This document shows, in pieces, positions 4,119 through 52,935 of a DNA stretch of 64,000 nucleotides. Source of the DNA: Octopus vulgaris (taxonomy: Eukaryota); assembly GCA_951406725.2 (NCBI GenBank), contig OX597827.1, positions 42,718,001 through 42,782,000 on the forward strand, read 5' to 3'. A model generated the notes under the pieces. The model saw only the letters and a program-made list of their open reading frames with translations. It was not told where the DNA came from and did not search any database. The position numbers and the translations under genes were made by a program. The first letter of the stretch is position 1; every line of letters begins with the position of its first letter.

Positions 4119-5320
4119 TGACCGTTTTGGCTGTTAATCGGAGCAGTGGATTAGCAAAGGTTCTTAGCATATTGGAAGAAAGAGATTTTCTTTTTACCTC
4201 TTACTTCAATTAACAGCCATGATAAAACAAATAAAATTTTATATCTCTTCACACCTGGTAATAAACTGAAGGAAGTCTACAACATGCGGTTAGGGGTTTC
4301 AAATATTTGAATTGACAGATGTCAAAGTCAAGCTCATATTCTGTAGGAATGCGAAGGTGAGATAGAGTTTATTGCAGGATTCAGCTGTTCTGAAGAAAAA
4401 ACAATTTCTGCGAGAAATTTGAAACGTGTCTGAGATTTGAAAGAAGTGTGGATGAGATTTTCTAAATTTAGTAAATTCTCAGGTTTCTAATGGTAAACTC
4501 CCGGACTGGTGGGGCCAATGAATGAAGCTGAATGGAACACCGTTCATAGAAAAAACAGTTGAAATGGGTCAAATTTACAACATTCCATCAATAACAAAGA
4601 AGTTTGAGTAACAAAGAGAGACCATCTCCACATAGGTTGCGTATTCAATTCTGTATTCTATCAAGACGAAACAGAACATTGGAATAAATCCATCCAAAAT
4701 ATGCGAACTTTTATGCGGTATTGGAAAATAAAGCAGTATTAGATTAAAATAGTCATCTATGTATCATACTTAATGTATATACATTAAGTATGATACATAG
4801 GTGGCTAGTTTTGTGAGAGCATTGTTCTGTTTTGGTTCTTGTAGAGATACAGTAAGGCTTCAAGTTTAGAAACTTTTCTTTTTTGAACGATGAAACGAGT
4901 CCATCATTTTTAGCTCTTAGGTAGTAGTCGATTTGTAAGAGTTCCATTTCAAATTAGGCATAAATTTAAGACCCAAGCGTCTATGCAAGCAAGGAGTATC
5001 TTCTTCAAAGTAGTCCCATCAATCAAAACAGGTGAGAGCAAGAATTTCACGATGGTAGAAGGAAAATGCAGAGCTGATTCTAGAAGCATTAAACGTACCG
5101 TGCCATATGTTTCGCATTGCACGATTCCAAGAACTGAAAATATATACTACTAGGTCCACTTTTAATGTTCTTAGAAAAGAGTAATGTCATCAGAAAATAT
5201 GCCAATACGCTATTATTATTGTTATATTTCGGGGCGGTCATTTTTTCTTGCCAAATAAACACACGCACTATATAATCGTTCTTCACTGCAGATTTAATAT
5301 TGTTCTTATTTATGTCCATT

Positions 5321-5364
5321 GTCTGGAAATCTTTCGTCACACGTCCTGTGACCTCTTCAGCGAC
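5321..5364 (-). ncRNA. Minimal type I hammerhead ribozyme-like motif
   Basis: Minus strand GTCG-CTGAAGA-G-GTCACA-ggacg-TGTGAC-GAAA-GATT-TC-C(A)GAC: canonical core, perfect 6-bp stem II, short bulged stem I, minimal stem III. Confidence 0.65.
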
Positions 5365-5636
5365 TCTCCATCCCACGTGCCTCCTCCTGTTCTGTTTAGT
5401 TCATGGACGAACGTGGGATGTGTGTCGAAAGATTTTCAGACAAAGGACATAAAATAAGAACAATAATAAATCTGAAGCGAAAAACGAATATATAGTGCGT
5501 GTGTTTATTTGGCAAAAAAATGACCGTCCCGAAATATAACAAAAAAGTAATAAAGTCCTTTATTGTCATATTTTCTGATGACATGACGCTTTTCTAAGAA
5601 CATTAACAGTGGATCTAGTTACACGTAGAATGGAGA

Positions 5637-5680
5637 GTCGCTGAAGAGGTCACAGGACGTGCGTCGAAAGACTTCCAGGT
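5637..5680 (+). ncRNA. Second copy of the hammerhead-like motif (stem II mutated)
   Basis: GTCG CTGAAGA GGTCACAGGACGTGCGTC GAAA GACTTC. Confidence 0.5.
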
Positions 5681-6704
5681 GAAGGACATAAAATAAGAAC
5701 AATGATGAAATAAATCTGAAGTGCCAGTGTTTATTTAGCAAAAAAGAATTTTAAAAAAGGCCATCATGAAATATAACAATACCTGTTTCAATACGCGATT
5801 TCACATCAGTAATCTTGCATAACAAATTCATAAACTTAACGACTTGACTATTTTTGTCAGGAAAATCGGCGATAAAGAGCAGGAAGAGCGTAGGTCTTAG
5901 GACAGATACTCCTGGTCTATCATCCTCATATATTTCATGAATATATATCTGAGTTGCCACTGGTGGCAGCTTTCAAACGTATTTCTCCGTTGGGAACACT
6001 CAGATGGCGAGTGGGAAAAGATTCTACCAGATAAACCACGACTGGTTTGTTTATGAAGCAGGCCACAAGCACCATACCTTCTCAAATTCTTTGGAGATGT
6101 CGAAGGCCAAAAAGATAAGCATAAAAGCTGCTTTCTGGTATGCTGCTGCTGCTTCTGTGAGTGGTGCTGTATCGTATGAGCAGTGAATCTGGAAGACTGA
6201 AAACCGCAACGCTTGTCGTTAAAAACTTGACTCTCTTCAAGTGGTTAATGACGTGCTTCTAAAAGATAGAATCAAACGGCTAACTTTGCATACTTAATAG
6301 GCTAATTGGTCTATATTAAGGAAGAGAGGAGGGACAGAGAGAGAGGGAAGGAAAGAGAGAGGGTGAGAGAGAGAATTATTGAGAAGGAGGGCGTGCGAGG
6401 GTGAGGGGGAAAGAGGGAGGAAGAGAAAGACAGAAAGAGAAAGAGAGGGAAAGGAAGAGAAAAATGGCTGAAAAGGTTATCAGACAACAAGGATCACTCA
6501 AAATTTGAAAATGGAGTTAAATTCTTTTCTAATCACTGAGTGGAACCTGTCAAATGTATGAAGTCTGAGTTTTAGGTGAAATCCAGCGAATATTCGTATT
6601 CAACAACAACAAATCTCTACTGACATGGTATTTCTGAACCCGTTAGACATACCTGGATCCCACCTCAACAGCTTCAGAGGTTGTAGCAATGTAAGCTCAA
6701 ATCA

Positions 6705-8005: not shown

Positions 8006-8382
8006 AGAGCATATATTCATATATATGTATCTAACTATGCACACATTTATATGCGTGTGTGTGTGTGTATATGTAAGCATGTATGCGAAGTAGATTTTGA
8101 AAAAGGATATATGAACAAGGAGCACGTAGTTTGAGCGCCTCGTGTTTATATGTTTAACACTAGGTGTTCCTGCTGAGGACGATTTCACCTGGCGAGTGTA
8201 TATGTTATTCATTCACTTGCTAAACTAAAATCAGAAACCAATTGGTCCAGGAAACTAGATGGTAGAATGTTTTTATTTTTCCTTTCGTTCTTGTCGAATT
8301 TTATCCCTAATTTTGTGGTTATAGAATCTAGCTGTTCTTTCTAGCGTGTTGAATCCTATGAGTGGATTCTTCATGTGTTTAA

Positions 8383-51033: not shown

Positions 51034-51348
51034 GTGTGGAGACACATAGCCTAGTGGTTAGAGCAGCGGACTCGCGGTCGAGGGATCGCGGGTTCGAATC
51101 TCAGACCGGACGATGTGTGTGTGTTTCTGAGCGAAACACCTAAGCTCCACGCGGCTCCGGCAGAAGGTAATGGCGAAACTTCTGCTGACTCTTTCGCCAC
51201 AACTTTCTCTCACTCTTTCCTCCTGCATCTTACAGCTCACCTGCGACGGACCGTCGTCCCGTCCAGGCGATGAACCTATACGCCAAGAAACCGGGAAACC
51301 GGCCCTTATGAGCTAGGCATGGCTCGAGAAGGAACAAAAAAAAAAAAA
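51034..51348 (+). mobile_element. SINE variant: family B head with a different body/tail and poly(A)
   Basis: B-like tRNA head; CCTGCGACGGACCGTCGTCCCGTCCAGG segment; A-tail; 13-bp TSD CAATAATGACACT / CAATGATGACACT (51021-51033 and 51349-51361). Confidence 0.85.
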
Positions 51349-51570: not shown

Positions 51571-51670
51571 GTCTTTCTTGTTGTGAAGGTGAAAGAAGGT
51601 GAAAGTTCATACGTATATGTATGCATATGTCTGTGTGTGTGTGAGTGTGCATATATATATGAGGTATGTA

Positions 51671-51716
<46 letters not shown>

Positions 51717-51756
51717 TGATATTTATAAACAAATAACAACAGGTGGATTGAGCCTC

Positions 51757-51845
51757 ATTCACTACAGCTGTTTCAGACGTCTTTTTTATTGATGTATAGT
51801 GTTATTACATAATGTGAAAGAAAAATAGCTTTTCATCAGGTGAAT
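51757..51845 (-). ncRNA. Type I hammerhead ribozyme-like motif with a long stem II region
   Basis: Minus strand ATTCAC-CTGATGA-[58 nt]-GAAACAGCTGTA-GTGAAT: perfect 6-bp stem I, canonical core, palindromic stem III, GUA site. Confidence 0.65.
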
Positions 51846-51973
51846 ATATGCACGAATTAAACATTTCAAAGCATGTTAAAAAATCCAACTATGTACCATT
51901 TCATGATTCTCAGGCGAACTTTGGCCACAGACCTTTTTAGAATGTTTCAAAATGTTTAATTCGTGCATATTTT

Positions 51974-52064
51974 CACCTGATGAAACAGTTTTATTTTTCA
52001 TATGATGTAATAATTCTATTCATCACTAAAGACAAAAAAACACACGCTTGAAACAGCTGTAGTG
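51974..52064 (+). ncRNA. Inverted partner hammerhead-like motif
   Basis: CAC-CTGATGA(51977-51983)-[66 nt]-GAAACAGCTGTA(52050-52061)-GTG. Confidence 0.55.
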
Positions 52065-52541
52065 TATATACATATATATATGTATGTATATATATATATA
52101 TATTTACATTTATATTTATATATATATAAGAAATTAACTGTGTAAAAGTTAATACAAAGAGTATTCCATCCAATGAGAGCTCAATATCAGTAAATGTTTC
52201 AACTACTTGTACAATCATGCTACTAATAGTTTCCCCGTACATGCGTGCGTTCATCAGGCGCCTATCACCTTTGTTTGTTTTTTTTTTCTTTTTCTTCCCA
52301 AACCATTCTTTATACCAGTCGCTCAACATTCTCTAGCAGCCTTCTAAACTATAGCTGCTTAGATGGTATGGGTATGTTTGTAGTGGAATAGTCGATATAA
52401 GTCCATATTTGCGTGAAACTTGATTGAGTCTTTTAAGAGTGTCTCTCTTATCCTGTATTCCTTAACAAACTTGAATGAGTCGTTGTTGCTTTACTTGTCA
52501 TCATCATCATTGTTGCTGTTGTTGTTGTTTTGTCTCAAGCC

Positions 52542-52935
52542 GTGGAGGCGCAATGGCCCAGTGGTTAGGGCAGCGGACTCGCGGTCATAGGATCGCGGTT
52601 TCGATTCCCGGACCAGGCGTTGTGAGTGTTTATTGAGCGAAAACACCTAAAAGCTCCACGAGGCTCCGGCAGGGGATGGTGGTGATCCCTGCTGTACTCT
52701 TTCACCACAACTTTCTCTCACTCTTACTTCCTGTTTCTGTTGTACCTGTATTTCAAGGGGCCGGCCTTGTCACTCTCTGTGTCACGCTGAATATCATCGG
52801 GAACTACGTTATGGGTGCACGTGTCTGTGGAGTGCTCAGCCACTTACACGTTAATTTCACGAGCAGGCTGTTCCGTTGATTCGGATCAACCGGAACCCTC
52901 ATCGTCGTAACCGACGGAGTGCTTCCATCCATCCA
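52542..52935 (+). mobile_element. SINE family B, full length
   Basis: 13-bp TSD TTTGTCTCAAGCC (52529-52541 and 52936-52948); (TCCA)n tail. Confidence 0.93.

Follow-up and report, generated by a model that had tools for sequence, protein, structure and literature searches.

We analysed a 64-kb stretch of contig OX597827.1 from the 2.8-Gb genome of Octopus vulgaris, referred to below as the window, in which two type I hammerhead motifs are arranged divergently. They lie at 51839-51763 on the minus strand and 51977-52061 on the plus strand (two matches, against none in 100 shuffles), and GTA triplets ending at 51763 (minus) and 52061 (plus) mark the predicted cuts, in agreement with the original prediction. 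The features of the locus are as follows.

51650..51720, no strand: (TA)n/(CA)n microsatellite at the left end, the likely target (from sequence; nearly all ends of the family enter such repeats)
51725..~51932, minus strand: left arm, a 5'-truncated family-A pseudo-LTR (nhmmer 51927-51720, E 5e-55)
51757..51845, minus strand: left type I hammerhead motif, with 6-bp stem I, CUGAUGA at 51839-51833, 58-nt stem II and GAAAC-AGCU-GUA; predicted cut after 51763
51785..51790, minus strand: AATAAA within the 3' strand of stem II, 22 nt ahead of the predicted cut (from sequence; missing from the right arm)
51927..51934, no strand: head-to-head junction joining two 5' truncation points, without foreign spacer
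51934..52064, plus strand: right arm, a second pseudo-LTR copy that breaks off 3 nt past the predicted cut (nhmmer 51934-52068, E 2e-32)
51974..52064, plus strand: right type I hammerhead motif, with CUGAUGA at 51977-51983, 66-nt stem II, GAAAC-AGCU-GUA at 52050-52061 and 3-bp stem I
52065..52128, no strand: (TA)n microsatellite at the right end, common to the adjoining hammerhead-bearing repeat of another family
52129..52266, minus strand: element of an unrelated family, its 3' end facing the right arm, with a short-stem-II hammerhead motif at 52257-52223 (40 scored places of 69 candidates, common 3' end)

Two copies of what we take to be a tRNA-like SINE, in the same orientation, flank the region at 51046-51230 and 52553-52738. 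No PLE (Penelope-like element) ORF was found in the 64-kb window, and no gene-sized host ORF was recognised in it.

The inner segments of the two arms, 51831-51866 and 51950-51985, are complementary at 35 of 36 positions, a figure that our recomputation reproduced, and the whole arms are 76% identical with gaps and 85% identical across 104 aligned columns. The core is present in both arms and does not differ between them. On the one hand, the lengths given for the stem II inserts (58 and 66 nt) and the strong folding of an approximately 310-bp element were upheld, with 51722-52066 folding back at -128.7 kcal/mol (z -14.7). On the other hand, the inserts are homologous copies and not independent sequences, and the element is larger than had been proposed. 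Since the left arm extends as far as about 51932 and 51934 is the first position of the right arm, the arms are directly joined; the 83-nt centre of the pair is no spacer, being mostly the additional 5' length of the left arm, which reaches about 170 nt upstream of its predicted cut (about 125 nt in the right arm). The divergence from the family-A majority is 14% for the left arm and 12.5% for the right arm. The left arm ends +38 nt from its predicted cut, and the stem I of the right arm has just 3 bp because this arm stops in (TA)n.

When the window element was searched against the genome, 595 candidates were obtained, of which 40 places were scored (68-90% identity), and a profile built from five family-A searches and the fetched flanks gave 92 distinct arms at 67 sites. 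These arms average 15% from the majority (range 7-26%, 73 arms). The other genomic copies keep the core and stem I (7 bp in the family), as the original prediction expected. At the 67 sampled sites the arms were single at 42, divergent at 23, tandem at 2 and convergent at none; as the first query favoured pairs, it should be added that 6 of the 16 sites sampled by an exact 23-nt motif were pairs. Nearly all family-A ends adjoin (TA)n, (TG)n or (CA)n, and the 3' ends are fixed at two positions (about +38 and about +318 nt, counted from the predicted cut). Of the 92 arms, 43 end at +31..+52, the class of the left window arm, 36 beyond +290, and 13 elsewhere, mostly at other inserted repeats. The approximately 280 nt separating the short and long ends, which we call the tail, hold what looks like an intron (a GT..AG stretch). 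When the ends of the 23 pairs were compared, 18 were short+long, 4 were unclassifiable and none was long+long; the remaining one, the window pair, was scored as short+short only because the aligner ran into (TA)n, its right arm in fact stopping 3 nt past the cut. Eleven of the 18 short+long pairs came from queries without the tail. Identity within pairs exceeded that between pairs only slightly (0.796 vs 0.770; 14 of 21 pairs, p 0.035). At L005 (~1660-1700), the pair is joined within a palindrome that stems from a naturally occurring hairpin. This hairpin lies about 160 nt upstream of the cut, a point at which truncation seems common among the copies.

These arrangements bear on whether the pair could be a MITE with terminal inverted repeats that resemble hammerheads. 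An element of about 310 bp with inverted arms and TA-rich flanks has that appearance, but most family-A arms are single, their lengths vary, their ends differ by 280 nt, no internal spacer is present, and the linked protein is a GIY-YIG endonuclease. The copies do not carry uniform TIRs at both ends, and a TSD is unreadable within the microsatellite flanks. Accordingly, we regard this origin as having a negligible chance, and the asymmetric ends and mostly single arms agree with the original prediction that the pair is not the TIR of a DNA transposon.

The homology upstream of the arm extends for more than 1.5 kb via a low-complexity UTR. At one locus (L142), a GIY-YIG endonuclease remnant, a UTR with inserted repeats and then a family-A arm lie on one strand, and at another (L190) an inverted family-A arm with its tail lies directly upstream of an endonuclease remnant; the two ORF ends are 72% identical. 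The ORF link of family A thus comes from two loci, and in one of them about 6 kb of UTR and other repeats intervene. Weaker arm matches adjoin related ORF ends at three more loci (L183, L186 and L191). The family-A remnant matches Pfam GIY-YIG at E 0.0015, below the curated cut-off, and is 47-50% identical to the endonuclease of a young sister family (family C, below). Among the recovered loci we found neither an intact family-A element nor an RT core linked to family A, only the thumb-end and endonuclease remnants of L142 and L190. They contain YIG, CxCX5C (in L190) and CxH (in L142), with CxxC degraded; the region N-terminal to RT, with DKT and RWK, was not recovered for family A. By the motifs that are present, the element likely belongs to the Hydra clade; a 'Neptune' label was dropped after motif comparison. 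The GIY-YIG ORF of L031 was considered as the family-A partner and rejected, as this ORF is part of a different family that has a UTR and a short-stem-II hammerhead of its own, and none of 29 other hits had a family-A arm within 1.5 kb. Separately, L048 / L031 form a chimera in which a family-B inverted end and endonuclease enter a family-A UTR at a microsatellite.

Family A combines a pseudo-LTR in which a type I hammerhead motif lies close to the 3' end, insertion in (TA)n, an inverted 5' copy (23 divergent and 0 convergent among 67; L190) and a one-sided tail (18 of 18 classifiable pairs). The original prediction that the motifs are Penelope-associated type I hammerheads with a palindromic stem III was upheld. 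We are confident that the pair is a PLE relic, and with only a little less assurance we consider it what decay has left of a single insertion, 5'-truncated and probably of a Hydra-clade element, with its two arms joined head-to-head in (TA)n. Family A could also be a non-autonomous derivative of short length, similar to a retrozyme or a SINE, that a PLE protein mobilises in trans. Most of its copies are only 100-500 nt, queries further upstream find 11-13 places against 595 candidates for the arm, and retrozymes have been reported as PLE derivatives (10.64898/2026.07.22.740005). However, head-to-tail tandem monomers are confined to 2 of the 67 sites, and the ragged 5' ends grade over more than 1.5 kb into the endonuclease remnant, as in ordinary 5' truncation. 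We therefore consider a non-autonomous origin improbable.

The motifs of family A have pairing-neutral variation in stem I, in which G-U, A-U and G-C exchange and the pairing is kept in 65 of 69 and 65 of 66 cases at two positions. Stem II is an imperfect AU-rich hairpin whose insert folds at -10.2 kcal/mol in the majority, -3.2 in the left window arm and -6.1 in the right. At its base the family-A majority has an A-C mismatch (G-C in L168), and the left window motif has two mismatches and a weak fold. In the right motif, the hammerhead-shaped fold is about 11 kcal/mol costlier than the free fold. The stem III palindrome is able to dimerise in computation (-11.1). The long stem II had been called atypical, a view that we abandon, as about ten motif clusters of this genome have one: among 18 clusters in the fetched loci, 10 have a stem II of 46-60 nt. 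In 6 of these 10, AATAAA or ATTAAA lies 17-27 nt ahead of the predicted cut (a raw count in AT-rich sequence), and A[AT]TAAA is retained 21-23 nt from the predicted cut in 10 of 17 intact family-A motifs. Rfam gave no match over the window at the gathering threshold, and at E<=10 it returned only sub-threshold hairpin and miRNA models, none of them a hammerhead. Because Rfam and published descriptors miss them, long-stem-II hammerheads are probably undercounted in this lineage.

Does the pair of intact cores indicate a function at this site? The original prediction suggested that an antisense copy could sequester each ribozyme, and the pair might then be a regulatory cassette under selection, with each ribozyme restrained by the antisense copy of itself. 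A read-through transcript would indeed fold back, as the strong fold of the region indicates, but no special design is needed, since divergent pairs are a routine insertion product and their orientation is set by insertion in at least 3 families. The core is intact in 29 of 74 full-length family-A arms, and in 15 of 44 arms from core-free queries. With about one third of the arms keeping the core, a pair with two intact cores is unremarkable and should occur about once in every eight to ten pairs. The right arm, moreover, is without the tail and most of stem I, and no gene-sized host ORF was recognised in the window. What remains in favour of a cassette, beside the identical cores of the two arms, is that core columns are under-substituted across the family and within pairs. 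Family A has 66 core-column substitutions against 121 expected from a base-matched background; with CpG-prone columns removed, the ratio of core to background is 0.55-0.73 (column permutation p 0.03-0.07), and it is likewise low when the two arms of a pair are compared (0.35-0.67, p 0.008-0.05). Such a deficit would not be expected from pure neutral decay. It likely comes from selection in the source elements and from a profile seeded on intact cores, and the cores may also stay under constraint after insertion. Taken together, we see very little room for a regulatory cassette, and the ribozyme is likely inert in the window copy, with the fold-back as a by-product.

Family C provides younger examples of such insertions. 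It has an intact 842-aa ORF with DKT, YRDD, CxCX5C, YIG, CxxC and CxH, in which RWA replaces RWK; CxxC and CxH lie around the conserved E and N, and a CX2-5CxxC finger is absent; its atlas neighbours are RT/GIY-YIG proteins, and no RT match was obtained in Pfam or PDB. This young Hydra-like family with its intact ORF is found at L180 (2578-5103), L181, L182 and L187, of which L181 contains a 3.1-kb palindrome at 99% and L182 a 172-bp inverted end that is 100% identical. Other Hydra-like ORFs, on the minus strands of L188 (5500-7848) and L189 (3707-6037), have long linkers rich in asparagine, similar to the N-rich inserts described for rotifer Penelopes (PMC3846280).

The family-C motif has 1660 matches genome-wide. 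Among the first 100, all on one contig, the neighbours within 6 kb were divergent in 27 cases, tandem in 1 and convergent in 1, and 15 pairs lay within 700 bp. Every one of the 27 pairs has one short and one tailed end. The arms differ by 0.73 per 92 nt within pairs and 2.6 between pairs (26 pairs, one being left out for an internal deletion), indicating that both arms came from one source. At the junctions, 25 of 27 passed the filter, and the joins were microhomologous in 10 (1-6 nt), blunt in 9 and with small insertions in 6. L253 was then left out as a mapping failure, and in the 24 mapped junctions the tailed arm was longer in 6, the short arm in 6, and the two were equal within 30 nt in 12. 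Partial tandem copies occur in both families, at L019 (family A) and at L202 (family C), the latter reading through the tail.

Short+long pairs with either arm longer favour priming from both target ends, and we lean towards such a twin-priming step, with reservation. In this proposal, the endonuclease would cut (TA)n on both strands, and both cut target ends would prime reverse transcription of the element RNA, with one end using the distal start site and its partner the proximal site. A dimer of the enzyme might act on a single RNA or on two RNAs of one source, and both cDNAs would stop early and be joined bluntly or via 1-6 nt of microhomology. One start site per target end would account for the orientation, for the short+long rule and for either arm being the longer, and equal truncation would arise when both enzymes reach the same RNA 5' end. 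The ribozyme would likely have served the source element in 3'-end processing, either as a dimer via the ACAGCUGU palindrome or with the help of a protein.

The symmetric truncation in 12 of the 24 young pairs, however, could also be explained by fold-back priming, in which the second arm is made by self-priming of one cDNA or of an antisense template and the endonuclease trims one tail. The microhomology at 10 of 25 junctions and the locus-specific variants common to both arms of a pair are consistent with this, and both steps have precedent, as PMC3846280 put forward self-priming with an antisense template, and PMC8557442 tail resolution by the endonuclease. A fold-back of tail-primed cDNA nevertheless predicts that the tailed arm is never the shorter, but in 6 of 24 pairs it is the short-ended arm that is longer, with differences of up to 4.2 kb; nor could a cDNA that started at the proximal site serve as template for the tail. 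These objections bear on the single-cDNA form of fold-back, and the antisense-template form may still hold. Hence, we treat fold-back priming as possible but rather doubtful, and we keep priming from both target ends as the working explanation.

Based on the short+long rule, the right window arm should carry the tail of about 280 nt, and the tail model finds none elsewhere in the window. We considered that the arm stopped where it does through priming at a ribozyme-cleaved end. This was rejected, as copies ending at the predicted ribozyme cut with A/T directly after it number 0 in family C, against 1660 motif matches, and for this reason later tail loss is preferred. We infer that the tail was deleted after insertion, and the adjoining element at 52129..52266 may be linked to this loss.

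Other hammerhead-bearing repeats were found in the window. The family of the element at 52129..52266 has inverted partners at many of its scored places. The original prediction had also noted a second divergent pair from another family, and we recovered it (5332/5641, within 5215-5790) with the same architecture. It belongs to a different large family (4441 candidates), which was short+long in 10 of 10 loci where both opposite arms could be read (20 examined), and the window copy carries an additional partial arm. The motif of this family reads GAAAGATTTC, not GAAAC..GTH, and we treat it as a hammerhead-like candidate. Elsewhere, 8167-8256 (plus strand) has a type I hammerhead motif with a 54-nt stem II and a palindromic ACCAATTGGT stem III, from a family about 90% identical with 1184 candidates. 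A hammerhead-like pattern running from 46301 to about 46200 (minus strand) has a very AT-rich 83-nt stem II and may be a chance product of low complexity.

In summary, the flagged feature is known biology, an inverted Penelope insertion. To this, our study adds a stem II of 46-66 nt in many families, the placement of the poly(A) hexamer, the tail of about 280 nt and the short+long rule. These points concern the origin of PLE inverted ends and one-sided tails, for which the short+long rule with either arm longer is a sharp prediction, and the young family C, with its intact ORF and about 1,660 motif copies, offers a model for PLE insertion. A bolder reading, which we put forward as speculation with the odds against it, joins two-site twin priming by a dimeric enzyme to a poly(A) signal in stem II that switches between polyadenylation and self-cleavage, with cores perhaps still selected post-insertion. 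As stem II carries this signal 17-27 nt ahead of the cut, its folding would, in that reading, switch the fate of the RNA. If true, the Hydra-type elements here would reveal the mechanism of Penelope insertion and a new ribozyme design.

In the open-access literature, we found no report of twin priming in PLEs or of a poly(A) hexamer in PLE hammerheads, and the open-access literature likewise gave no report of octopus hammerheads. A Penelope expansion in Octopus vulgaris at a JC distance of 0.2 is described in PMC13282606, and hammerheads go unmentioned there. The closest known systems are the Hydra-clade PLEs (Craig et al. 2021, PMC8557442; Hydra-1_Obim, Penelope-13_HM), which share with the elements here the C-terminal GIY-YIG, the CxCX5C linker, DKT, CxxC and CxH, (TA)n targets and a type I hammerhead near the 3' end; Penelope-13_HM also has an inverted 5' copy with a hammerhead on both strands (PMC8557442). 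Inverted 5' copies, with the tail often at one end only, are reported in PMC8557442 and PMC3846280. On the other hand, the Hydra hammerheads in PMC8557442 have a stem II of 3-7 bp with loops of 3-10 nt, in contrast to 46-66 nt here, although two spike-moss PLEs in that paper have stem II loops of about 30 nt. The listed Hydra elements are mostly shorter than 3 kb and the described tail is 30-40 bp (PMC8557442), whereas family C measures about 4.4 kb, of which the 3' UTR makes up 1.6 kb, and the tail is about 280 nt in family A and about 70 nt in family C. The Hydra RWK motif is RWA in family C.

The minimal Penelope hammerheads (Cervera and De la Pena 2014, PMC4209133) are, like those here, of type I, in a pseudo-LTR, with a short palindromic helix III and a predicted dimer, and dual opposite-strand hammerheads 100-700 bp apart are reported in the same paper. 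Their helix II has 7-8 bp (PMC4209133), whereas the long imperfect AU-rich hairpin here has, in the majority, an A-U closing pair and often a poly(A) hexamer. Non-LTR retrozymes resemble family A in being short and non-coding and in having a type I hammerhead with a palindromic helix III, but they are head-to-tail arrays, while the copies here occur singly or head-to-head and merge gradually into a PLE ORF. For the insertion step, the nearest counterpart is PAc, the Poseidon element of the green anole (Frangieh et al. 2024, PMC11167929), which has two internal RT start sites, cuts both strands and is predicted to form a dimer; its hammerhead is protein-assisted, and ribozyme cleavage is dispensable for insertion (PMC11167929). 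In both systems two start sites define the tail and the targets are AT-rich (PMC11167929). PAc, however, belongs to another clade, and the start sites here are 70-280 nt apart and, in family C, upstream of the ORF. Finally, PAc showed no difference between strands in vitro (PMC11167929), whereas the octopus genome shows one start site per target end.
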